This document shows positions 1,101-23,068 of a stretch of 32,000 nt of DNA, piece after piece. Under the pieces are notes generated by a model. The model saw nothing but the letters and a program-made list of their open reading frames with translations. It had not been told where the DNA came from and searched no databases. The translations under genes were made by a program, and so were the position numbers. Each line of letters begins with the position of its first letter. Position 1 is the first letter of the stretch. This stretch comes from Kiritimatiella glycovorans. GTDB lineage: Bacteria; Verrucomicrobiota; Kiritimatiellia; Kiritimatiellales; Kiritimatiellaceae. The stretch covers positions 1,110,001 through 1,142,000 of the forward strand of contig NZ_CP010904.1 in NCBI RefSeq assembly GCF_001017655.1, written 5' to 3'.

Positions 1101-1135
1101 GAAGGCCCGGTCGATAGCGACCGGGCCTTCTTTAT
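1101..1135 (+). terminator. Rho-independent terminator after the PEP-CTERM gene
   Basis: GAAGGCCCGGTCG-ATAG-CGACCGGGCCTTC forms a perfect 13-bp stem with a 4-nt loop, followed by TTTAT. It begins 19 nt after the stop codon. Confidence 0.75.
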
Positions 1136-1141
1136 GCGGTC

Positions 1142-2066
1142 ATCCGCTGCGAGCGATCCCCTGGAGGGACGGCTTCCACGCCGTCCACAAAAGCGGCGCG
1201 CTCGGAGATCGCGCCCTACCTGAAAACGCGGGCCGACCCTTGCGATGGAATCGGTCGGGGTGGAACCCGACCCTCCACGCCGTCCGTTGTGAGCGATCCC
1301 CTGGAGGGACGGCTTCCACGCCGTCCACAAAAGCGGCGCGCTCGGAGATCGTGCCCTACCTGAAAACGCGGGCCGACCCTTGCGATGGAATCGGTCGGGG
1401 TGGAACCCGACCCTCCACGCCGTCCGTTGTGAGCGATCCCCTGGAGGGACGGCTTCCACGCCGTCCGCAAAAGCGGCGCGCTCGGAGATCGCGCCCTACC
1501 TGAAAACGCGGGCCGACCCTTGCGATGGAATCGGTCGGGGTGGAACCCGACCCTCCACGCCGTCCGCTGCGAGCGATCCCCTGGAGGGACGGCTTCCACG
1601 CCGTCCGCAAAAGCGGCGCGCTCGGAGATCGCGCCCTACCTGAAAACGCGGGCCGACCCTTGCGATGGAATCGGTCGGGGTGGAACCCGACCCTCCACGC
1701 CGTCCGTTGTGAGCGATCCCCTGGAGGGACGGCTTCCACGCCGTCCGCAAAAGCGGCGCGCTCGGAGATCGTGCCCTATCGGAAAACGCGGGCCGACCCT
1801 TGCGATGGAATCGGTCGGGGTGGAACCCGACCCTCCACGCCGTCCGTTGTGAGCGATCCCCTGGAGGGACGGCTTCCACGCCGTCCACAAAAGCGGCGCG
1901 CTCGGAGATCGTGCCCTACCTGAAAACGCGGGCCGACCCTTGCGATGGAATCGGTCGGGGTGGAACCCGACCCTCCACGCCGTCCGCTGCGAGCGATCCC
2001 CTGGAGGGACGGCTTCCACGCCGTCCGCAAAAGCGGCGCGCTCGGAGATCGTGCCCTACCCAGGAA
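1142..2066. repeat. Tandem array A of a 140-bp hairpin-rich unit (about 6.6 copies), BIME/REPIN-like
   Basis: The marker tgcgatggaatc recurs at 1241, 1381, 1521, 1661, 1801 and 1941, an exact 140-bp period. Copies differ only by a few transitions. Each unit contains GGTCGGG-GTGGAA-CCCGACC, GGACGGC-TTCCAC-GCCGTCC and GGCGCG-N9-CG(C/T)GCC. Confidence 0.97.
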
Positions 2067-2095
2067 CGCAGACTGAACCCATAGGTGAAAGGTAG

Positions 2096-2116
2096 GGACG
2101 GCTGTCCCAGCCGTCC
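2096..2116. repeat. Solo hairpin of the same family (long-stem variant)
   Basis: GGACGGCTG-TCC-CAGCCGTCC has a 9-bp stem, preceded by gtagg as at the start of array B. Confidence 0.8.
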
Positions 2117-2298
2117 GCCCGGCCGTGTCCGCCCTGCCGTCCGCGCAGATATCGCGCGCTACCAAAGGCAAAAAACTCCGCAGACCATCACCATAGTACA
2201 AAAAGGCGTCAGCGAAGCGTAGGACATCGCCTCCCCGTATCCGCAAGGATACGCGTCATTCTTATTTCGCTTCTTTTAATTCAACCGGACGAAGAATC

Positions 2299-3570
2299 AT
2301 GTGGATGCACGCGACCATGGATCTCAAGGCGGAGCCGTTTAATGCGGCCGACCGCGCGATGCTTCGCAATCTCGCCCGCCGGGTAGCCGAGATCGCCGCC
2401 CTTCCGATTCAGCGGGAACGCGAAATCCTCTGTACGGCGCACAACGATCTCAAGACGAAACAACCGGTGGTCTTCGCCTTTCCCGAGGGGGCGTGGACGG
2501 AACTTATCCCCCTCTCGTCGCTGCAGGGCACGACCCCCTTCACGCGCCATTTCGAGACAGAACTTCGACGTCGCATCTACTACGACGATCACATTCGCGA
2601 CGATCAGCCGATCCGCCGCGAACTCTACGTCCCGTACGCCGGCCGATTCACCACCTTCGGTCTCGAGATGCGGACCACGGAGAGCACCAGCGAGCGCGGT
2701 TCGCGTCACTTCGATCCGATCATCCGCACCATGGAGGATGTAGAAAAGATGGAGCCGCCGCGGGTCGAGATCGATTGGGACGAGACCCGGCGGCGCGAGG
2801 AGATCGTTCAGGAGGCGCTCGGGGATATTCTCGACGTACAGCTTCAGGGCATGTGGCGGGGAAATTGCATCCCGATCGACGTTTTCGCCATGTACTGCGG
2901 TCTCGACAACCTTTTCTACGACATGCTCGACCAGCCGGAGATGATACACGCTGCGGTCCGGCTCATGGTCGACGGTTGGATCGACTGTGTGAAGGAACTC
3001 GAACGGATCGGCGCCCTGTCACTGGCCCATACGAATCAGTTCTGCGCCTCGGGCGGGATGTCGTATACCGACGATCTTCCGCAGCCGGACTTCGACGGGG
3101 AGCACGTACGGCTCAAAGATCTATGGGGATTCGCCACGGACCAGATCTTTACCGATGTCTCCCCGGCGATGCACGAGGAGTTCGCCATCGAGCACGAAAA
3201 GCGTTTTCTGGAACTGTTCGGACTTAATTCCTACGGCTGCTGCGAGCCGCTGCACAACAAGATCGAAATGCTCGAGCGGCACCTCCCGAATCTGCGCCGG
3301 CTCTCGATTTCCCCCTGGGCCGATGTCGAACAATGCGCCGAGCAGCTTCAGGACCGCTACATCTATTCGTGGAAACCGAACCCCGTGATCCTGGCCGGGG
3401 ACCGCTTCGAGCCCGAGGCCGTGCGTGAGAGTATCCGGGCCTTTCGCGAAAAAACGAGGGATTGTGTTCCGGAGATTATAATGAAGGATACCCATACCGT
3501 CCGCCATGATCCGCGCCGCATTCCCGAATGGGTGCGTATCGCCAAAGAGGTCTGTGAGGAGACGGGATAA
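2299..3570 (+). CDS. Hypothetical enzyme, possibly a distant URO-D-like TIM-barrel protein (function uncertain)
   Basis: A 423-aa ORF with ATG at 2299 (alternative ATGs at 2305 and 2317) and an AT-rich upstream region. Its C-terminal half (SYGCCEPLH, ISPWADVEQ) looks like a remote relative of the URO-D/MtaA fold encoded by the next gene. I cannot confirm this without an HMM search. Confidence 0.6.
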   Translation: MWMHATMDLKAEPFNAADRAMLRNLARRVAEIAALPIQREREILCTAHNDLKTKQPVVFAFPEGAWTELIPLSSLQGTTPFTRHFETELRRRIYYDDHIRDDQPIRRELYVPYAGRFTTFGLEMRTTESTSERGSRHFDPIIRTMEDVEKMEPPRVEIDWDETRRREEIVQEALGDILDVQLQGMWRGNCIPIDVFAMYCGLDNLFYDMLDQPEMIHAAVRLMVDGWIDCVKELERIGALSLAHTNQFCASGGMSYTDDLPQPDFDGEHVRLKDLWGFATDQIFTDVSPAMHEEFAIEHEKRFLELFGLNSYGCCEPLHNKIEMLERHLPNLRRLSISPWADVEQCAEQLQDRYIYSWKPNPVILAGDRFEPEAVRESIRAFREKTRDCVPEIIMKDTHTVRHDPRRIPEWVRIAKEVCEETG

Positions 3571-3613
3571 AGAGCTGTGGGCATGGATTGAAAAAGAAGG
3601 GAGAAGCGGAAGT

Positions 3614-4591
3614 ATGAGTAAACGAGACGACATGATCGCGGCCATGAGCGGACGTCTTCCCGGGCGTGTTCCGCTGTGGGAACTCGAGTTTCAGATGTGG
3701 AATCAGTTCAGTGACGAGAAACTGATCGTCGGAACGCCGTTTACCAAACTGACCGGACGGGAGCAGCAGGAACAGCTCGATCGAAATGCGCGGATCATCT
3801 GCGACGTGAGCGAGCGACTCGATTTCGCGGGGATCACCCTTCCTGCATGGTACTGGGAATCCGCGCCCGGCGAGCCCGCGTATTTCTGGCTGCCCGAGCC
3901 CGACCGCGAGACGCTGCTGCGCAGAATCATCGATATCGCCGGGGACCGTTTCTACTACGTGGTCCACGTCGGCGGCGTGCTGGGTATGCCGCCCTCCGAC
4001 CGGTATATGGAGTTTTCCTGTCAGCTTTTCGAAGATCCGGAATCGATCGACCGCCGCGCGCGGGAAAACTGCGATGAGGCCAGACGCCGGGTCGAACACT
4101 GGGCGCCGTTGGGCGCGGACGGTTTTCTGATGCCCGCCGATCAGGCGATGAACAACGGACCGTTCTATAATCCCGAACAGATGGACCGGTTCATCTATCC
4201 GTATCTGAGGGAGATGGCGGATACGATCCGTCAGGCCGGCGGCCATTCCATCCTGCACACCGACGGCAATGTCATGCCGCTGATGGACGGCTATATGGAA
4301 TGCGGCATCGACGCCATCCAGGCACTGGATCCCATCGCCGGTATGGATCTGGAAAAGGTGAAGGCGAAGACAGGCGACCGCCTTACCCTGTGCGGAAATG
4401 TCGACTGCTGTACGCTGATCTCCGGAACCCCCGGAGACGTGGCGGAACAGACCCGCGAGTGCCTCGCCCGGGGAAAACCCGGGGGCCGGTTTGTGCTCGG
4501 TGCGTCAAACGCCGTCGAGTACTCCGCTCCCGCGGAAAACTTTCAGGCCATGATCGATACCTGGCGCGCCGATCCCGGATACGACGCCTAG
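3614..4591 (+). CDS. Uroporphyrinogen decarboxylase (URO-D) / MtaA-CmuA family protein
   Basis: ATG 3614 is preceded by GAAGGGAG. The ORF-track start at 3506 lies inside the previous gene. The motifs HTDGNVMPLMDGYMECGIDAIQALDP, LCGNVDCCTLISGTPGDV and GGRFVLGASNAV are typical of the C-terminal half of URO-D-like enzymes. Confidence 0.8.
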   Translation: MSKRDDMIAAMSGRLPGRVPLWELEFQMWNQFSDEKLIVGTPFTKLTGREQQEQLDRNARIICDVSERLDFAGITLPAWYWESAPGEPAYFWLPEPDRETLLRRIIDIAGDRFYYVVHVGGVLGMPPSDRYMEFSCQLFEDPESIDRRARENCDEARRRVEHWAPLGADGFLMPADQAMNNGPFYNPEQMDRFIYPYLREMADTIRQAGGHSILHTDGNVMPLMDGYMECGIDAIQALDPIAGMDLEKVKAKTGDRLTLCGNVDCCTLISGTPGDVAEQTRECLARGKPGGRFVLGASNAVEYSAPAENFQAMIDTWRADPGYDA

Positions 4592-4640
4592 CCCTGGAGG
4601 GATGCTGCTGTCCAGCAGCACCGTCCGGAAACGAAAGAGG

Positions 4641-5357
4641 GTAGGGACGGCTTCCACGCCGTCCGTTGTGAGCGATCCCCTGGAGGGACGGCTTCCACGC
4701 CGTCCACAAAAGCGGCGCGCTCGGAGATCGCGCCTTACCCGAAAACGCGGGCCGACCCTTGCGAGGGAACAGGTCGGGGTGGAACCCGACCCTCCACGCC
4801 GTCCGTTGTGAGCGATCCCCTGGAGGGACGGCTTCCACGCCGTCCGCAAAAGCGGCGCGCTCGGAGATCGCGCCCTACCTGAAAACGCGGGCCGACCCTT
4901 GCGAGGGAACAGGTCGGGGTGGAACCCGACCCTCCACGCCGTCCGTTGTGAGCGATCCCCTGGAGGGACGGCTTCCACGCCGTCCACAAAAGCGGCGCGC
5001 TCGGAGATCGCGCCCTGTCTGAAAACGCGGGCCGACCCTTGCGAGGGAATCGGTCGGGGTGGAACCCGACCCTCCACGCCGTCCGTTGTGAGCGATCCCC
5101 TGGAGGGACGGCTTCCACGCCGTCCGCAAAAGCGGCGCGCTCGGAGATCGCGCCCTACCAGAAAAACGCGGGCCGACCCTTGCGAGGGAACAGGTCGGGG
5201 TGGAACCCGACCCTCCACGCCGTCCGTTGTGAGCGATCCCCTGGAGGGACGGCTTCCACGCCGTCCGCAAAAGCGGCGCGCTCGGAGATCGCGCCTTACC
5301 CGAAAACGCGGGCCGACCCTTGCGAGGGAACAGGTCGGGGTGGAACCCGACCCTCCA
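4641..5357. repeat. Tandem array B of the same 140-bp unit (about 5.1 copies), same orientation as array A
   Basis: The marker ttgcgagggaa recurs at 4759, 4899, 5039, 5180 and 5320, a period of 140 with one 141 caused by an extra A. The unit is nearly identical to array A apart from tgcgaGggaaCAggtcgggg versus tgcgaTggaaTCggtcgggg. An extra hairpin GCTGCTG..CAGCAGC (4604-4619) sits between the stop codon and the array. Confidence 0.97.
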
Positions 5358-5452
5358 ATATGAGCGAAAAGATTGTTCGCGTATCTCCAGATCCCCTACA
5401 CTCCCCCAATCCGTTGTATTATGGGTTTATTCAGACAGAAGGGGCTGAGGCG

Positions 5453-7807
5453 ATGTTGCGTTCGATGGTGTTCCCGTTGTTCGGAGTTCAGGTCTTGTGG
5501 GTTGGGATGAGCGCATATGCTGCCGCGGGAGCACTCGAACCCTTCTCGATGGCCGACCCGCTCGGGATCAACGTGGAGGATGTGGCGGCGCTTAATGAAC
5601 TCGGCAATCAGCCGCTGGCACGATTGGGATATGTCGATGTGACCGCTGCGCCGTTCCACGTGGACGGCTCGGGCGAAACGGACGTCACCGTATCGCTCCA
5701 GGAGGCGATCACCTTCGCGCGTCATCATAAAATGGCGGCGTATCTTCCGGCCGGGACGTATCGGGTCAGCGATACGATTCGTTGCTTTGGCGGATGGCGG
5801 GACTACCGCGACGAACAATACCGCTATCTTCCGCACGTCGACTTCTGGCCGTGTGTCGTGGTCGGGGACACGCGCGGTGCGGGACGTCCCCGGATCGTGC
5901 TCGCGGCCAATTCCCCTGATTTCAACAATCCGGCGTTCTTGAAGCCCGTGGTTCAGTTCTTTGCGCGGAGCTGGCGGCGTGATGCCTCGGAAGAGATTCC
6001 GCGCCTCGACGGATCACCCGCATTCAATCAGTTGTTCAAGGGCGTGGACATCGAAATCGAGCCGGGCAATCCGCGTGCGACGGCGTTGTTTATGGATTCG
6101 GCCGAGGGCGCGACGATCCAGGACTGCACGCTGGATGCAGGGGAGGGGTACGCCTGTCTCGAGCGCTGTCCGGGCAGCGGCGGCGCGGTATTTAATGTCG
6201 AGATGCGCGGAGGCCGGGTCGGGGCGGTGATGAACGGGGCGCGTCCGTCCGCCACCCTGGCGGGAGTGCGCTTCCGCGGACAGCGCGAAGCGGCCATCCA
6301 TTACGATCAGCGCGGAGGACTCACCGTGGTCGGATGCACCTTTGATCTCGCGCCCGGAGTGCCCGCCGTCCGCTCGCGCGATACGCGGCACGGCGCGTTG
6401 AGTGTGGTCGACACCCGAATCGCCTTCTCGCAGGCCGATCCGGGGAACGTGGCCTTTGATGCCGGGACGGCGTTTTATCTCCGGGATGTGTATGTGCATC
6501 AGGCGGCAGCGGTCCTGAAGACCGAAGGCGGGCGTGTTCTCGGATCCCCTGAGCACGAATGGGTCCGCGTCGATGAGGCCGCCGTCGGGCATGATAGCTA
6601 CCCGATTCCGATCGATACGCCGATTTATATCGACGGGGAAGAGCGGGGCGCCTTTTGCCGGATGGAGCCCTGTGCGGAGCCGGAGGACGGGTTCGTGCGG
6701 CGTCACATCTTCTGGGACGAGTCGACTGCGCCGGCGTTTGACCGGGCGGGGTATGTAAACGTGAAGGATGCGCCGTATCATGCGCGGGGGGATGGGGAGA
6801 CGGACGACACCGAGGCCCTGCAGCGCGCGATCGACGAACACGAGGTCGTCTTTCTTCCCAAGGGGGCATACCGGATCACGCGTACGCTGCGACTGCGTCC
6901 GGAAACGAAACTCTTCGGCGTGAGTCCCTCGTACAGTCTGATCGTGCCGATGGAGGTCAGCGGCGGCGATTTCATGGACCCCGCTGACCCGCGTCCCGCG
7001 ATTCGCACCGCCGATCGTAAGGATGCCGATACGGTTCTGGAATTCGTGGGGATCTATCTTCCGCGCGAACTGGTTCACGCGGTCTATGCCCTGGATTGGC
7101 GCTGTGGCGGGCGGTCGCGCCTGAGATGCGCCCACCCGCTCTTCGGCTACACCGAGCTCGACTGGGAATTCAAGCGGCAGGACCTTTATCCCTGGGACAA
7201 CTGGTCATGGGAGGATATGGGGGCCATGGCGACGATGCTCGAGCCGGACGGCGTGCGCCATCGTTCCATCCCCGGCTTCGCGCCGGACACCTCGCGGGAT
7301 CGCCGGCGTAACTGGCCGATGCAGCTCGTGCGCGGTCATGGCGGCGGCGCGTGGTACGCGATGTGGGCGAACAGTACATGGGGGCAGGGGGCCCGGTATC
7401 GGCAGCTTCGCGTCGAGGGTATCGACGGTCCGTTCGCGATTTATCACGCCCAGCTTCAATATTCGCGCGGCGAGGCCGAGATCGAGATGGTCGGGGCGCG
7501 AAACGTCTCGATCTACGGGACCAAGAAGGAGATGGATGCCCCCGTCCTCGTGCTGCGCGACTGCGAGAACGTGCTCTACACCGGCAACGGCGGTCCCGGG
7601 ATGTCCGTGGTTCCGGAATGGGGGCACTACCGTATCTTCAATTCGCGCGCGATCACCCTGGCCAACCTGTTCTTCGATCCGCGGCCCGAAGGCGCACACG
7701 GCAGGAGCGAGTCGGTCCCGATCGTGCGGGTGTATGACGGACAGGGCCGCGAGACATTCTGGAGCGAACCCGGGGCACGCCCCGTACTGTTTAAACGTAC
7801 CCCGTAA
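5453..7807 (+). CDS. Secreted double beta-helix glycosidase (pectate-lyase superfamily, GH28/GH55-like)
   Basis: ATG 5453 is preceded by GAGG, and the N-terminus MLRSMVFPLFGVQVLWVGMSAYAAAGA is signal-peptide-like. ATG 5360 is an alternative start. The track start at 5039 is a TTG inside the repeat array and is rejected. There are two Pectate_lyase_3-type N-terminal motifs: YVDVTAAPFHVDGSGETDVTVSLQEAI and YVNVKDAPYHARGDGETDDTEALQRAI. Confidence 0.8.
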   Translation: MLRSMVFPLFGVQVLWVGMSAYAAAGALEPFSMADPLGINVEDVAALNELGNQPLARLGYVDVTAAPFHVDGSGETDVTVSLQEAITFARHHKMAAYLPAGTYRVSDTIRCFGGWRDYRDEQYRYLPHVDFWPCVVVGDTRGAGRPRIVLAANSPDFNNPAFLKPVVQFFARSWRRDASEEIPRLDGSPAFNQLFKGVDIEIEPGNPRATALFMDSAEGATIQDCTLDAGEGYACLERCPGSGGAVFNVEMRGGRVGAVMNGARPSATLAGVRFRGQREAAIHYDQRGGLTVVGCTFDLAPGVPAVRSRDTRHGALSVVDTRIAFSQADPGNVAFDAGTAFYLRDVYVHQAAAVLKTEGGRVLGSPEHEWVRVDEAAVGHDSYPIPIDTPIYIDGEERGAFCRMEPCAEPEDGFVRRHIFWDESTAPAFDRAGYVNVKDAPYHARGDGETDDTEALQRAIDEHEVVFLPKGAYRITRTLRLRPETKLFGVSPSYSLIVPMEVSGGDFMDPADPRPAIRTADRKDADTVLEFVGIYLPRELVHAVYALDWRCGGRSRLRCAHPLFGYTELDWEFKRQDLYPWDNWSWEDMGAMATMLEPDGVRHRSIPGFAPDTSRDRRRNWPMQLVRGHGGGAWYAMWANSTWGQGARYRQLRVEGIDGPFAIYHAQLQYSRGEAEIEMVGARNVSIYGTKKEMDAPVLVLRDCENVLYTGNGGPGMSVVPEWGHYRIFNSRAITLANLFFDPRPEGAHGRSESVPIVRVYDGQGRETFWSEPGARPVLFKRTP

Positions 7808-11155: not shown

Positions 11156-11222
11156 GGCAGGGACGGCTCTCCGAGCCGTCCGAAAATGTGAGAGGGCAGG
11201 GACGGATCTCCGAGCCGTCCGC
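11154..11222. repeat. Two direct copies of a long-stem hairpin of the same family
   Basis: gggcagGGACGGCTC-TCC-GAGCCGTCCg (11161-11181, perfect 9-bp stem) is followed 39 nt downstream by gggcagGGACGGATC-TCC-GAGCCGTCCg (one mismatch). The pair fills the gap between the transporter gene and the next gene. Confidence 0.85.
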
Positions 11223-14174: not shown

Positions 14175-14204
14175 GCCGCAATGCATACACGGATACGAAT
14201 CACA

Positions 14205-14472
14205 GGGCCGGCTTCCACGCCGACCGCAAAAGGGACGGGGTGAAACCCGTCCCTCCAGGGAAAATGCGGATGGCGATATGGAGGGTCGGCTTCCACGCCG
14301 ACCGCAAAAGGGACGGGGTGGAACCCGTCCCTCCAGGGAAAATGCGGATGGCGATATGGAGGGCCGGCTTCCACGCCGACCGCAAAAGGGACGGGGTGAA
14401 ACCTGTCTCTCCAGGGAAAATGCGGATGGCGATATGGAGGGTCGGCTTCCACGCCGACCGCAAAAGAGGACG
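14205..14472. repeat. Tandem array C: 78-bp unit (about 3.4 copies) related to the 140-bp family
   Basis: ggcttccacgccgacc recurs at 14210, 14288, 14366 and 14444, a period of 78. The unit contains GGTCGGC-TTCCAC-GCCGACC, a 7-nt spacer, then GGGACGGG-GTG(G/A)AA-CCCGTCCC. The last copy is degenerate. Confidence 0.95.
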
Positions 14473-14485
14473 GAGAGAACGGTAA

Positions 14486-17324: not shown

Positions 17325-17410
17325 TGGTGGTGGGGGAAGGATTCGAACCTTCGAAGGCATGAGCCAACAGATTTACAGTCTGCCCCGTTTGACCGCTTCG
17401 GTACCCCACC
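17325..17410 (-). tRNA. tRNA-Tyr(GTA): tRNA-Tyr (anticodon GTA), CCA encoded
   Basis: Minus-strand sequence GGTGGGGTACCGAAGCGGTCAAACGGGGCAGACTGTAAATCTGTTGGCTCATGCCTTCGAAGGTTCGAATCCTTCCCCCACCACCA. It has a 7-bp acceptor stem GGTGGGG/CCCCACC, an anticodon loop CTGTAAA, a long variable arm and a T-loop GGTTCGAATCC. Confidence 0.95.
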
Positions 17411-17451: not shown

Positions 17452-17468
17452 GAGCGAATTGGGGATGA

Positions 17469-17534
17469 GGATCAGAATCAGAATCAGAATCAGAGTCAGA
17501 GTGAGAATCAGAGTCAGAGGGAGAGGGAGTGAGA
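17469..17534. repeat. Hexanucleotide microsatellite (GANTCA-type), 11 units
   Basis: ggatca gaatca gaatca gaatca gagtca gagtga gaatca gagtca gaggga gaggga gtgaga. The plus strand is purine-rich and six of the units contain GANTC. Confidence 0.9.
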
Positions 17535-17781: not shown

Positions 17782-19068
17782 TCAGGTTTCACCCTCAGAA
17801 CACTCCTTCACCGTCAGTCCCAGCGTTTTGATCTGGCGCGGGGAGGAGGCGAGTACGCTGATGATGACCTCGTCGGTTTCGACGCGTTCCCGGACGGTGG
17901 GGATGTGGCCCAGTCGCTGCAGCACGAGCCCGCCGATCGAATCGTAGTCCTCGTCGAGCGGCAGATTGAGCCCGAGCCGCTCGTTGACGTCGCTGACCGG
18001 GATGCGGGCGTCGACCAGGTATCCGCCGTCGGTTCGCTTCTGGATCCCCGCATCGGCCAGATCGTATTCGTCCTGAATCTCGCCGATCAGTTCTTCGATG
18101 ATATCCTCCATGCAGACGAGGCCGGCCGTCCCGCCGTATTCGTCGACCACCAGCACCATCTGCGAGCGCTGAGCCTGCATGCTCTTGAGCAGCTCGCGGA
18201 TCGGCATGGTTTCAGGTACGAAACGCAGCGGTTTGAGCAGAGGGGTGATCGAGCGGCTGCCGCCGTCCTCGGACAGCGAGCGCAGCAGGTCCTTCACATG
18301 AATCATGCCGCGCACATCGTCGATCTTTTCATGGTAGACCGGGAAACGCGAATGACGCGATTCGCGCACGACGTCGAGGCATTCCTGCACGGTGAGCGCG
18401 TCGCGGATGCCCTCCACGTCCACCCGCGGCGTCATGATCTCGCGCGCGACGGTCTCCCCGAACGAGAAGACGCTCTGGATGATGGCCCGCTCCTCCTCCT
18501 CGATATCGCGCGCACCGGCCTGGTCCATCACGCCCAGAATCTCGTCCTCGGCCGAGGGCCGGTCGGCCTCGGCCGAGGAGGACAGCGCGCGGTGCAGCAT
18601 ACTGCGCTCGATACGGTTGAGCATCCGGGCCAGGGGATAGAGGACGCGCGTCAGCCCCCCGGCGAAGGGCAGGAACCGGATCGATATGCGGTCCGCGTAA
18701 CTCTCCGACAGCACGTAGGGCAGGATGCGCACCAGGGCGACGTAGAGCAGGACCGCCCCCGCCACGAGCACGACCCGTCCCGGGAGCAGGAGCAGATCGA
18801 AAAGCTTCACCACGCAGACGACCGCCAGCACATCCGTGACCAGCACGGCCAGGCGCAGGGAAATCAGCAGCAGTTCCCAGCGGTGGTCCCATTGTTCCAG
18901 CCGCCGCCGCGCGGAGGGATAATGTTCGATAAGCCGCGCCGTGCCCGCCTCGCCGGAGGAGTGAAAACAGGCATACAGCGTGGAGAACACACCGGCCAGC
19001 ACCAGCGCGATACACCCCGTCCCCGCCCAGGTGAATATCAGCGATTCAGGATTCATGTTCGTGATCAT
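17782..19068 (-). CDS. corC: CNNM/DUF21-CBS-CorC_HlyC family transporter (hemolysin-family protein)
   Basis: N-terminal transmembrane segments, a CBS pair (ETVAREIMTPRVDVEGI..., VRGMIHVKDLL) and a C-terminal CorC_HlyC domain (DGGYLVDARIPVSDVNERLGL). An alternative ATG lies at 19056. Confidence 0.88.
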   Translation of the reverse strand: MITNMNPESLIFTWAGTGCIALVLAGVFSTLYACFHSSGEAGTARLIEHYPSARRRLEQWDHRWELLLISLRLAVLVTDVLAVVCVVKLFDLLLLPGRVVLVAGAVLLYVALVRILPYVLSESYADRISIRFLPFAGGLTRVLYPLARMLNRIERSMLHRALSSSAEADRPSAEDEILGVMDQAGARDIEEEERAIIQSVFSFGETVAREIMTPRVDVEGIRDALTVQECLDVVRESRHSRFPVYHEKIDDVRGMIHVKDLLRSLSEDGGSRSITPLLKPLRFVPETMPIRELLKSMQAQRSQMVLVVDEYGGTAGLVCMEDIIEELIGEIQDEYDLADAGIQKRTDGGYLVDARIPVSDVNERLGLNLPLDEDYDSIGGLVLQRLGHIPTVRERVETDEVIISVLASSPRQIKTLGLTVKECSEGET

Positions 19069-19534: not shown

Positions 19535-21800
19535 TGCGGGGGTAGGCGACTCGTCCATGGAGCATGTTGGTGAGCGTGAACGTAAAGGACGACTTGATCT
19601 CGCTGAGCTGGGCGAGCGTCAGTTCGCAGTTTTCGAGCTGACGGTCTTTCATCTTCGAGCTGACGATCTCGTCGACCATGTTTTCGATGCGGCTGGGCGT
19701 GACTTTTTCCAGACTTCTCGACGCCGCCTCCACGGAGTCGGCGAGATGGAGGATCGCCATTTCGGGGGAGACGGGCCGGGGGCCGGGGTAGCGGTAATCC
19801 TTGTCGTCGATGCGCGAATGGCCGCCTTTCTCCTCCTCCTTGGCCTGGTGGTAGAAGTAGGAAATGAGCCCCGTGCCGTGATGCTCCCGGATGCCCTCGA
19901 TGATCGGACGCGGGAGCCGGTACTTGCGCGCGAGGTCCACGCCCTCCTTCACGTGAGACATGATCACCAGGGTACTCATGCTCGGCGCGATTTCGTCGTG
20001 CGGGTTATCCTCCTGCTGGATGTTCTCCGAGAAGTAGTTCGGTTTCACGAGCTTGCCGATGTCGTGGTAATAGGCGCAGACCCGCGCGAGCAGCGGGTTG
20101 GCGCCGATCCTCTCCGCGGCGGCCGAGGCCAGGTTCGCCATCATCAGCGAGTGGTGGTACGTTCCCGGCGCTTCGAGCGCGAGCCGCTGGAGCAGGGGAT
20201 GGCCCATGTCCGAGAGCTCCAGCAGCCGGATGTCGGTGGTGATGTCGAACATGGATTCGAACATCGGGATCAGGATCACGGCCGCCGCCGCGGAGAAGAG
20301 GCCGCTGGCGAACCCGGCCGCGGCCTGCAGGGCGATGATTTCGGGCGGCGGACGGTTGAGCACGGCCATGATCAGTACGAAGATCACGTGGATCGATCCG
20401 ATGAACACCCCGGCCCGCAGGAGACTCGAGCGGCGCTTCACATCGCGGGCCACAAACGACGCCCCGGCCGCGACGAACAGGCCGAGCAGAAACATGCTGT
20501 ATTGCTCGCCGAAGAGCGTGGCCACGGCCAGACTGGTCCATAATCCGACCACGAATCCGGCACCGCCGCCGAGGAGGATCGTACCCAGCAGCGGGGCGAG
20601 TCCGTAGGGGAGCATGGTGTCGAGCAGCGCGGGCGGTATGACCCCGGGCGTCGAGGCGGCGAACAGCAGCAGCTTGAAGAGCAGAAGCGAAATGAGCGCG
20701 AGCAGCGCGAGCAGGGTCACCTCCCGGTACTCGAACCGGCGCCGGTGTTTCAGCAGCCGGTAGAGCCCCGTGCACGCGGCGAGCGCGAGCAGCAGGATGA
20801 GGCCGTGTCCGAGCGCGCCCAGCAGGCGCGCAAACGGGTCCTCCAGCTCGCGCAGCCTTTCCTGGTAGGCGCGCAGCTTGATCAGGTCCTGCTCGTTCAG
20901 CCGGCTTCCCGACTTGACCAGGGTCGTTCCGGCGACCACTTCGCGCGACACGGGTTTGACCCGCTGGCGCGCTTCTTCACGCAGGGTGCCGGTGCGGGCC
21001 TGGTTGTATTCCAGATTGGGCACCAGCCACTTGGCAAGCAGCCGGCGGTATACGGCGTCCCCCAGATCCGGGATATCGCGCTGCCGGCTGAGTTGGCGGG
21101 CGATCTCATGGACGGCTTCGGCGGGCGTGGCGAGCTGATCGATGGCGGCGGAGGCCTGCACGCGGTCGTCCTCGCGGTAGAGATGGATCACCGCCTCCGG
21201 TGCGAGCCCGCGGAAGCGGGTCTCGCGGTCTTCCGGGGAGATCAGGCCGGAGGCGTAGGCCGCGCGCATCGATTCCGTCAGCCTTTCATGCGTGGCTTCG
21301 ATCCGGTTCTCCTTGAACAGCGGCGCGAAATCCTCCGCGCGGAGGTCCAGTCCGAGCACGTCAAGCGTGTCGGTCAGCGAACGGCGAAGTTCATCCGACT
21401 CTTCATCGGGGGCGGCGCGCAGTCGTTCGACGCGGTTGAATATCTTTTTCAGCGATTGGCTCGCATCCTCAAACGGCGCCATGCTGATCTGAAACACGGG
21501 GGGGACGGCCTCGCCGGCCTGCGTACGCCGCAGCCGGGTCTCGGCCAGGTCCCTGTGCTGGAAGTCCACCGTGGCCACCACGGTTTCCGGGGCTCGCTGG
21601 CCGGGGGCGAGCGCGGCGTATTTCATCGGCTTCTGATGAAACACGAAAAAGAGGAGGATCGTGACGGCCCACAGCAGCAGGAGCTGGAGCGTGTTCAGCA
21701 CCGTGAAGCGCGAGACCCCCTGACGGGTCCGGGGTGCGTGTTTACGCGCGGCGATCCGCTCCTGCGGCTTCTTCTTCTGCGGGGGGCGGTTTCGGGTCAT
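19452..21800 (-). CDS. 7TM-receptor-HD phosphohydrolase (PgpH/YqfF-like HDIG protein)
   Basis: An N-terminal extracellular domain, about 7 transmembrane helices, and an HD domain (CAYYHDIGKLVKP, MSHVKEGVDLARK, REHHGTGLISYFY). The ATGA at 21797-21800 overlaps the phoH stop codon. Confidence 0.85.
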   Translation of the reverse strand: MTRNRPPQKKKPQERIAARKHAPRTRQGVSRFTVLNTLQLLLLWAVTILLFFVFHQKPMKYAALAPGQRAPETVVATVDFQHRDLAETRLRRTQAGEAVPPVFQISMAPFEDASQSLKKIFNRVERLRAAPDEESDELRRSLTDTLDVLGLDLRAEDFAPLFKENRIEATHERLTESMRAAYASGLISPEDRETRFRGLAPEAVIHLYREDDRVQASAAIDQLATPAEAVHEIARQLSRQRDIPDLGDAVYRRLLAKWLVPNLEYNQARTGTLREEARQRVKPVSREVVAGTTLVKSGSRLNEQDLIKLRAYQERLRELEDPFARLLGALGHGLILLLALAACTGLYRLLKHRRRFEYREVTLLALLALISLLLFKLLLFAASTPGVIPPALLDTMLPYGLAPLLGTILLGGGAGFVVGLWTSLAVATLFGEQYSMFLLGLFVAAGASFVARDVKRRSSLLRAGVFIGSIHVIFVLIMAVLNRPPPEIIALQAAAGFASGLFSAAAAVILIPMFESMFDITTDIRLLELSDMGHPLLQRLALEAPGTYHHSLMMANLASAAAERIGANPLLARVCAYYHDIGKLVKPNYFSENIQQEDNPHDEIAPSMSTLVIMSHVKEGVDLARKYRLPRPIIEGIREHHGTGLISYFYHQAKEEEKGGHSRIDDKDYRYPGPRPVSPEMAILHLADSVEAASRSLEKVTPSRIENMVDEIVSSKMKDRQLENCELTLAQLSEIKSSFTFTLTNMLHGRVAYPRNESGNSESAAQVQGPKPQDQGADRPSR

Positions 21801-22765: not shown

Positions 22766-22848
22766 AAGAATGCAGGGGAGGGCGCACGTCCGGCTTTTCA
22801 GCGCCGGAGGCACCCGGCCTTCCCGGGCGGGAAGGCCTCCCCGACCGC

Positions 22849-22988: not shown

Positions 22989-23068
22989 GGACGGCGTGGC
23001 AGCCGTCCCTCCCGAGTCGATATCCGACGCATTTTCGGGCACTGGGAGGGTCGGGTGCCACCCCGACC
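22989..23068. repeat. Solo inverted hairpin pair (REPIN-like) of the same family
   Basis: GGACGGC-GTGGCA-GCCGTCC (22989-23008) and GGTCGGG-TGCCAC-CCCGACC (23049-23068). The loops are reverse complements. The 40-nt spacer is itself bounded by CTCCCGAG / CTGGGAG. Confidence 0.85.

Follow-up and report, generated by a model that had tools for sequence, protein, structure and literature searches.

The window analysed here, a 32,000-nucleotide stretch of the chromosome of Kiritimatiella glycovorans L21-Fru-AB (positions 1,110,001 to 1,142,000 of NZ_CP010904.1), contains two arrays of 140-bp tandem repeats, array A at 1142-2066 and array B at 4641-5357, with two genes between them. This layout raises the question of whether the arrays are the boundaries of a gene cassette, as an initial annotation of the sequence had proposed, or whether they are repeats of another kind that happen to lie on either side of two genes. 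The anatomy of the repeat unit favors the second answer. The arrays are, with good probability, clusters of the type known for repetitive extragenic palindromes (REPs) and bacterial interspersed mosaic elements (BIMEs), in which hairpins of a dispersed, TGGAG-tagged family are combined into a mosaic unit that is reiterated in tandem.

Anatomy of the arrays and their hairpins

Array A is situated on the plus strand and consists of six full 140-bp units and a partial seventh. Tandem Repeats Finder reports it at 1143-2060 with a period of 140, 6.6 copies, 97% matches and a score of 1738. Array B, on the same strand, starts with a GTAG-tagged copy of the first hairpin of the unit (REP1), which is followed by five units of 140 bp, one of them having 141 bp (4653-5357, period 140, 5.0 copies, 96% matches, score 1324). 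The arrays have the same register, their units being cut in phase, and are about 96% alike. Gapless comparison across 361-500 bp gives identities of 0.94-0.96, and the longest exact run common to both is 133 bp. The initial annotation had described two near-identical 140-bp arrays in the same orientation, and this description is confirmed.

Each unit is built of three hairpins, arranged in the order REP1(+), 8-nt spacer, REP2(-), 32-nt linker, REP3(-), 26-nt linker. REP1, on the plus strand, reads GGAG-GGACGGC-TTCCAC-GCCGTCC; on the minus strand, REP2 reads GTAG-GGCGCG-ATCTCCGAG-CGCGCC and REP3 reads GGAG-GGTCGGG-TTCCAC-CCCGACC. All three types have the short stem-loop form of a REP, with perfect 6-8-bp stems and 5-9-nt loops, and a tetranucleotide tag abuts one end of the stem. 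REP1 and REP3 have the tag GGAG, whereas REP2 and the copies at 2092 and 4641 have GTAG and those at 11157 and 11196 have GCAG. In every unit of arrays A and B, REP1(+) and REP2(-) stand head to head across the sequence (G/A)CAAAAGC. Inverted REPs that are joined by a short linker, often with tandem reiteration, constitute a BIME, and this organization is found in arrays A and B and also in a third array, C (14204-14473, plus strand). The latter, likewise reported by Tandem Repeats Finder, has a 78-bp unit repeated 3.4 times, which is formed by a head-to-head REP dimer with its GGAG tags outside. The 7-nt spacer between REP(+) and REP(-) in array C, GCAAAAG, is almost that between REP1 and REP2.

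The hairpins are dispersed over the window. The 24-nt motif GGAGGGNCGGNTTCCACNCCGNCC is present in 32 copies of alternating orientation, and no copy was found in 100 shuffles. Perfect hairpins with a G(G/T/C)AG tag number 40, and 38 of these fall within five intergenic gaps (1163-2116, 4641-5356, 11157-11220, 14233-14459 and 22989-23068). The hairpins at 20076, which has an unrelated stem and lies in a coding region, and at 22817 look like chance matches. Within the window the location of the 38 tagged hairpins is thus extragenic throughout, and the REP sites of the plus-strand gene cluster begin 2-60 nt past a stop codon. Two of the gaps hold hairpins outside the three arrays. The first has two GCAG-tagged REP-like hairpins (11157-11220, plus strand), beginning 2 nt past the stop codon of a gene for a transporter of the MFS family. 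The second, between two minus-strand genes, has an isolated REP dimer (22989-23068, with no strand assigned) with TGCCAC loops and tags directed inward. Since as many as five intergenic gaps of the window hold REP hairpins, the bracketing of the two genes by arrays A and B is probably incidental.

The edges of both arrays fade into degenerate units. The 232 bp between the edge of array A and the first bracketed gene contain a degenerate unit tail, a solitary GTAG-tagged REP (2092-2116, plus strand; GTAG-GGACGGCT-GTCCC-AGCCGTCC), which lies in that tail, and a terminator-like hairpin. A terminator-like hairpin with the sequence CGTATCC-GCAA-GGATACG and a T-rich tail is situated at 2236-2262, only about 45 nt upstream of the ATG of this gene. 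It might function as a leader or attenuator, or it might mark where an unannotated transcript from array A ends. The left edge of the intergenic gap containing array A is formed by a further terminator-like hairpin (1101-1135, plus strand), with a 13-bp stem followed by TTTAT, situated 3' of the upstream PEP-CTERM-type gene. On the other side of the gene pair, a degenerate REP-like hairpin (4595-4630, plus strand; TGGAGGGA-TGCTGCT-GTCC-AGCAGCA-CCGTCCG) begins 4 nt past the stop codon of the second gene.

The positions and folds of the hairpins bear on the possibility that the arrays are cis-acting RNA or DNA structures, serving as stabilizers of mRNA in 3' untranslated regions (3'-UTRs), as insulators or attenuators of read-through from one module of the co-directional polysaccharide-utilization cluster to the next, or as binding sites for gyrase or nucleoid proteins, with their size being selected. 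The intergenic location of all REP sites and the short distance of those on the plus strand from the preceding stop codon fit such a role, as do the stable folds: either strand of the 140-bp units gives a structure of several hairpins (z = -1.4 to -3.0), and for the dimer of array C the fold is one long, REPIN-like hairpin (z = -4.0 to -4.6). REPs in general are found mostly downstream of coding regions and are plausible RNA elements, and the exopolysaccharide gene clusters of Thauera sp. MZ1T are flanked by GTAG-1 repeat arrays (PMC3733652). The likeness to Thauera is that REP arrays immediately flank clustered carbohydrate-related genes; the organism and the REP family are different. However, the modest z-scores of the 140-bp units would be expected of GC-rich palindromes anyway. 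No match to Rfam was found in the arrays, either at gathering thresholds or at E ≤ 1, and the arrays contain neither a sigma-70-type promoter nor a terminator-type T-run. A cis-acting role has an outside, if real, chance of being the explanation of the arrays, and it is compatible with their being REP/BIME clusters and not an alternative to it.

Assembly errors classically arise in long tandem repeats with near-identical units, and a period of 140 bp is within the size range of integron attC sites. Nevertheless, it is hardly credible that the arrays are an artifact or a repeat of one of the other familiar classes. The 2,949,723-bp chromosome (CP010904, G+C 63.3%) was finished using PacBio RSII and MiSeq data (PMC5148204), the arrays are shorter than 1 kb, and their units differ at 17 alignment columns in structured patterns. 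An artifact of assembly, a concern of the initial annotation, is therefore unlikely; the numbers of copies given here are those of the assembled sequence. A CRISPR array is ruled out because the whole 140-bp period is 96-97% conserved and hence leaves no unique spacers. The units were rejected as attC sites since they are multi-copy and in tandem, as opposed to one site per cassette, and no integrase was found among the window open reading frames (ORFs) screened against Pfam. Tandem small-RNA genes were dropped as no promoter or terminator is repeated in each unit.

The hairpin family and its transposases in other genomes

The hairpins of the window resemble those of the GTAG REP superfamily, which occurs in the Planctomycetes-Verrucomicrobia-Chlamydiae (PVC) superphylum. 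Opitutus terrae (Verrucomicrobia), with the families GTAG-17 to GTAG-20, is "highly enriched" in them (Di Nocera, De Gregorio and Rocco 2013, PMC3733652). In both cases stem-loops of 20-25 nt with 6-8-bp stems have a conserved tetranucleotide tag at one end and occur as head-to-head and tail-to-tail dimers, both of which are described in PMC3733652, and the clusters consist of dimers and flanking DNA reiterated in tandem. In both, the elements are extragenic, mostly downstream of genes. Both are also associated with REP-associated tyrosine transposases (RAYTs), the hairpin class described here by way of its copies in other genomes. The differences are that GGAG (TGGAG) is dominant here and GTAG is in the minority, and that the unit is a 140-bp mosaic of three hairpins, which forms arrays of 5-6.6 units. 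Earlier descriptions cover REP/BIME clusters, REPs in PVC bacteria, REPs inside genes and carbohydrate gene clusters with REP arrays beside them. No description of REP/BIME clusters in Kiritimatiella or of the TGGAG/TTCCAC hairpin was found in the literature, and the TTCCAC-loop hairpin was not found in the accessible part of the supplements of PMC3733652.

A scan with the hairpin pattern AGGGNCGGNTTCCACNCCGNCC, using one genome per species, identified at least 120 loci. These are mostly in metagenome-assembled genomes (MAGs) labelled Verrucomicrobiota, Kiritimatiellae, Victivallales or Lentisphaerae, with a few labelled Sumerlaeia, Thermodesulfobacteriota, Deltaproteobacteria or Anaerolineaceae. 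The four stem positions that the pattern leaves unspecified are Watson-Crick paired in 270 of 296 cases, by several base combinations, in 148 copies from the at least 120 loci. The 5' flank, also unspecified, is T in 100, G in 134 and G in 119 of the 147 copies having enough flank among the matches listed. The pairing of the stem and the T-G-G flank indicate that the element comprises TGGAG plus the hairpin and is maintained as a structure.

Tandem REP units or dimers are also present at five other loci (L005, L051, L072, L092 and L126), where the period is 36-104 bp and the number of copies 2.7-3.8; those of K. glycovorans are larger. Some hairpin cores are identical across loci L001-L120, AGGGACGGCTTCCACGCCGTCC occurring 32 times and AGGGTCGGGTTCCACCCCGACC 38 times among the matches listed. 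The MAGs having cores identical to those of the window are labelled Verrucomicrobiota, Kiritimatiellia, Victivallales, Lentisphaerae, Phycisphaerales, Anaerolineaceae, Thermodesulfobacteriota, Sumerlaeia and Eisenbacteria. Identical 22-mers are thus common to MAGs assigned to different phyla, which could be due to horizontal spread of a REP-RAYT system, to strong sequence constraint or to binning errors.

RAYT-like ORFs with the motif beside or inside them were found at four loci (L054, L064, L072 and L095). They score 72.5-86.2 bits against NF047646, the NCBIfam entry for REP-associated tyrosine transposases, which has a cutoff of 80 bits. Two further RAYT genes were chosen independently of the motif, one from Pontiellaceae B12227 (L126, 83.4 bits) and one from a Kiritimatiellales MAG (L127, 87.3 bits). 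Both have clusters of GGAGGG-tagged hairpins on both sides, the stems of which vary by genome. By its order of gene and repeats this arrangement is a classical REPtron, equivalent to that of Escherichia coli, in which cognate REPs lie on both sides of the Y1/HUH transposase TnpA-REP. This enzyme can cleave BIMEs and recombine them, and models for their amplification exist (Ton-Hoang et al. 2012, PMC3333891). The E. coli BIMEs are similar to the arrays described here in having inverted REP pairs, short linkers and tandem arrays, but they belong to another phylum and have a different tag and hairpin.

The transposase genes themselves contain related sequences. In one RAYT clade, variable in-frame inserts derived from REPs occupy a single site between FWKSxIARR and KLWQRDFWDTQ. 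The peptides encoded by the inserts include GGPTSVSA, DGTEAVPP, DGVEPVPP and GGTGSVPS, and examples are situated at L072 3780-3995, L054 1658-1768, L064 4311-4430 and L095 3863-3886 and in the proteins P0121-P0162. HIHLF and LWQRD are 31-33 aa apart in 50 homologues and 39-118 aa apart in about 36 others. This site seems to be a hot spot at which REPs insert or expand within the transposase gene.

Two other loci are of an unusual composition. At L021 2696-5599 (Kiritimatiellaeota MAG NIOZ-UU71), a long ORF includes an in-frame RAYT-like domain (65 bits, NF047646), bracketed by the near-repeats NVDATPSSR and NVDAPPSSR. This suggests that a transposase-like module was inserted in frame into a putative replication-restart helicase, PriA-like by sequence reading. 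The locus at L072 57-5419 (Kiritimatiellae MAG STCSWMC_75) has Pfam matches to a target protein with Ig and FGE-sulfatase domains, an HRDC accessory protein and a reverse transcriptase with the motif IGNLLSQ, and looks like a diversity-generating retroelement. A RAYT-like gene is situated in the middle of this locus, and GGAGGG-tagged hairpins lie inside several of its ORFs. In-frame intragenic copies are also a property of the GTAG REP superfamily in some PVC genomes.

Several observations weigh against the assignment of arrays A and B to the REP/BIME class. The dominant tag, GGAG, is not among the degenerate GTAG forms GYAG, GYRG, GTRG, GTMG and GTGG (PMC3733652); GTAG itself is present on the same stem, at 4641, and on REP2. 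The 140-bp unit with three hairpins exceeds the size of a classical BIME unit. The linker specific to the unit, AACGCGGGCCGACCCTTGCGA, had no matches in metagenome contigs and none in viral contigs, and the 24 metagenome-contig matches to the REP1-plus-spacer pattern, TTCCACGCCGNCCRCAAAAG, were all due to chance, lacking the tagged stem. Furthermore, the hairpin counts for K. glycovorans are those of the 32-kb window. Finally, searches with the L072 RAYT, after removal of its insert, and with the Pontiellaceae protein P0165 gave no K. glycovorans RAYT among the best 120 of 318 and the best 120 of 1123 matches, and there is no RAYT-like match within the window. REPtrons have been lost in some strains that retain REPs (PMC3733652), and for this reason the lack of a K. 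glycovorans RAYT among these matches lowers confidence in the mechanism by which the arrays arose more than in the identity of the repeats.

The bracketed genes and possible recombination between the arrays

The genes flanked by arrays A and B, gene 1 at 2299-3570 and gene 2 at 3614-4591, are both on the plus strand, and both had been labelled URO-D-like. Gene 2 encodes 325 aa, and its start at 3614 is an exact match to the deposited protein. The product is a clear member of the Pfam family URO-D (PF01208; E = 2.6e-21, 76.5 bits, cutoff 23.9) and matches the MtaA structure 4ay7 with E = 2.3e-6, which places it by homology in the URO-D superfamily, nearest to the MtaA/CmuA-type methyltransferases. 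Gene 1, encoding 423 aa, falls under the cutoff (E = 0.0088, 15.5 bits). Its AlphaFold model, with a pLDDT of 93.7, matches URO-D and MtaA chains (Foldseek E ~1e-6, probability 1.00, TM 0.5-0.6), and the protein is accordingly predicted to be a distant TIM-barrel member of the URO-D/MtaA fold, belonging to a large PVC-rich family. The label is fair for both genes because the gene 1 model matches URO-D and MtaA and gene 2 is a Pfam member.

The description of this pair as a cassette is weaker. The hairpins that bound it occupy five gaps of the window. The nearest homologue of gene 1 is 61% identical, and in three relatives the homologue has no adjacent URO-D partner, its neighbors being sulfatases, GFO/IDH/MocA oxidoreductases, AraC regulators or a glycyl-radical enzyme. 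Judging by these neighborhoods, genes 1 and 2 are not a conserved pair. They were also rejected as recent paralogues, since there is no significant BLASTP similarity between them. The possibility that the cassette is foreign DNA was rejected as well: the G+C content, the G+C content at third codon positions and the codon usage of both genes are within the range of the neighboring genes, disregarding the values of two neighbors that have out-of-frame starts. No transposase or integrase was found among the window ORFs screened against Pfam. A mobile gene cassette of the integron or composite-transposon type would have a recombinase or transposase gene close by, and defined recombination sites or terminal repeats, one site for each cassette; here no such gene is found among those ORFs, the flanks comprise multiple tandem units and their edges are degenerate.

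Segments between insertion sequences (IS elements) or rrn operons are examples of units that can be amplified or deleted by way of the direct repeats on either side. Arrays A and B are comparable in that two homologous direct repeats of about 0.7-0.9 kb bound a short gene segment. They differ in being non-coding REP arrays for which, in the one genome available, no rearrangement is observed and no selection on copy number is known. The comparison corresponds to the proposal of the initial annotation that the arrays matter as long direct repeats, so that the 2.6-kb two-gene segment could be deleted, excised or amplified by way of RecA, and that a hybrid unit in array B records a past exchange. 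The arrays are a valid substrate for homologous recombination, having the same orientation, 96% identity and exact runs of up to 133 bp. An in-register crossover between A and B would delete or duplicate 3519 + 140(j-i) bp, or 2.7-4.1 kb. In addition, a flexible structure has been suggested for the K. glycovorans genome, which has 75 transposase genes and 12 tentative genomic islands (PMC5148204). However, there is no evidence of any such event. For the window proteins that were found, the clusters at 90% identity hold only sequences from the one K. glycovorans contig, the same hairpins occupy other gaps, gene 1 lacks its partner in the three relatives and the two genes have no compositional anomaly.

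The variation among the units bears further on exchange between the arrays. The private variants reported earlier are present: GATGGAATCGG occurs in all six full units of array A and GAGGGAACAGG in four of the five units of array B, and unit B3 (4941-5080, with the motif near 5041) carries GAGGGAATCGG. The mean number of pairwise differences is 3.3 between units within A, 5.6 within B and 7.0 between the arrays. The T/G difference at column 106 is the single fixed difference between A and B, and columns 111-112 are near-fixed. The fixed difference at column 106 shows that homogenization is stronger within each array than between them, and the units of each array have undergone concerted evolution. 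The little homogenization between arrays argues against their acting on each other as direct repeats.

The sequence TC at columns 111-112 is common to all units of array A and to B3, the most divergent unit of array B, and is therefore most simply ancestral. On this view the alternative sequence, CA, would have arisen later and spread among the other units of B, and the "hybrid" unit is equally well explained as having retained the ancestral TC, so that a past exchange is not required. A better hint of common ancestry or gene conversion comes from column 46, where an A/G polymorphism segregates in both arrays alike. This suggests a common multi-unit ancestor, a third array elsewhere or gene conversion between A and B, and in this respect it is in favor of the direct-repeat proposal. 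Array A also has a weak higher-order pattern, in which A2 equals A6 and CGCTGCGAG is common to A1, A4 and A7. Altogether, it is unlikely that the significance of the arrays lies in their being direct repeats. Recombination between them is partly supported, as a legitimate prediction and not as a finding.

It is far less probable that the segment between the arrays was captured by a RAYT and can be mobilized as a unit, much like a rolling-circle element. Cleavage by TnpA-REP is possible at some distance from a BIME (PMC3333891), and the arrays are in direct orientation. But no second copy of the cassette is known, the searches described above had no K. glycovorans RAYT among the best 120 of 318 or the best 120 of 1123 matches, the array edges are degenerate and not sharp, and the composition of the cassette is native-like. 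The splitting of one original array by an insertion was also considered and rejected, as array A ends at a unit phase of about 80 and array B begins at about 120, both edges being degenerate.

Many mechanically called ORFs of 60-260 aa, on both strands, cross the arrays (668-2246, 4383-5363 and 5039-7807), and one ORF of 922 aa begins within array B and continues into a pectate-lyase-like gene. ORFs called within the arrays are spurious, as a period of 140 bp is not divisible by three. Translation of the gene downstream of array B probably starts at the in-frame ATG at 5453, which is followed by a segment resembling a signal peptide.

Among the other products encoded in the window are a sulfatase, a GH127 enzyme, pectate-lyase-like proteins, a sugar transporter of the MFS family and a protein of the PEP-CTERM type, a gene content in keeping with K. 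glycovorans. The PEP-CTERM-type protein (ORF 21-1082) was recognized from its C-terminal sequence, as it matched no Pfam family. Two further repeats were observed in the window. A hexanucleotide microsatellite with eight copies of ATCAGA, also scored as an 18-bp period repeated 3.3 times, is situated at 17466-17524, some 60 nt away from the tRNA gene on the minus strand at 17328-17410. The gene for a CNNM/CBS/CorC transporter contains, at 18545-18579, a perfect inverted repeat of 13 bp, TCCTCGGCCGAGG ... CCTCGGCCGAGGA.

Origin and significance of the arrays

If arrays A and B are REP/BIME clusters, a RAYT-type HUH/Y1 transposase that acts on single-stranded DNA may have seeded their hairpins and amplified them. 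Amplification would have followed the cleavage-and-rejoining and rolling-circle-like models proposed for the BIMEs of E. coli (PMC3333891), with slippage, unequal crossing-over or both adding units and homogenizing them. The two arrays would have a multi-unit ancestor in common or derive from a third array at another site of the genome. The bracketing of two genes would be a by-product of the density of REPs in a co-directional polysaccharide-utilization cluster, and the arrays may serve as RNA structures in 3'-UTRs and, secondarily, as substrates for recombination. A possible trace of how the unit arose is the tag of REP3, which directly precedes ACGCCGTCCG, the 3' half of REP1. Array B has, at its 5' edge, a complete GTAG-tagged REP1 in place of ACGCCGTCCG.

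A more far-reaching interpretation is that the TGGAG/TTCCAC hairpins represent an undescribed REP-RAYT lineage, marked by the identical 22-mers in several phyla and by the in-frame insertion hot spot of its RAYT gene, and that the unusually large three-hairpin arrays of K. glycovorans delimit modules for polysaccharide utilization, such as the two URO-D-fold genes, which they could mobilize or regulate. We regard this combination as decidedly unlikely. As ordinary REP/BIME clusters, the arrays would be common genome furniture, and Kiritimatiella would join the PVC bacteria in which such clusters are found. Annotators should be aware that ORFs called inside arrays of this kind are spurious. The arrays also give rise to a prediction that can be tested by PCR, namely structural heterogeneity in the type strain, affecting a 2.7-4.1-kb segment with two genes in a sulfated-polysaccharide cluster. 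Both the hairpin class and the RAYT clade that goes with it have a wide distribution in PVC and other uncultured lineages. With identical hairpins in distant MAGs and repeated in-frame insertions in the transposase gene, they could aid in studying how REP-RAYT systems spread and are tolerated.

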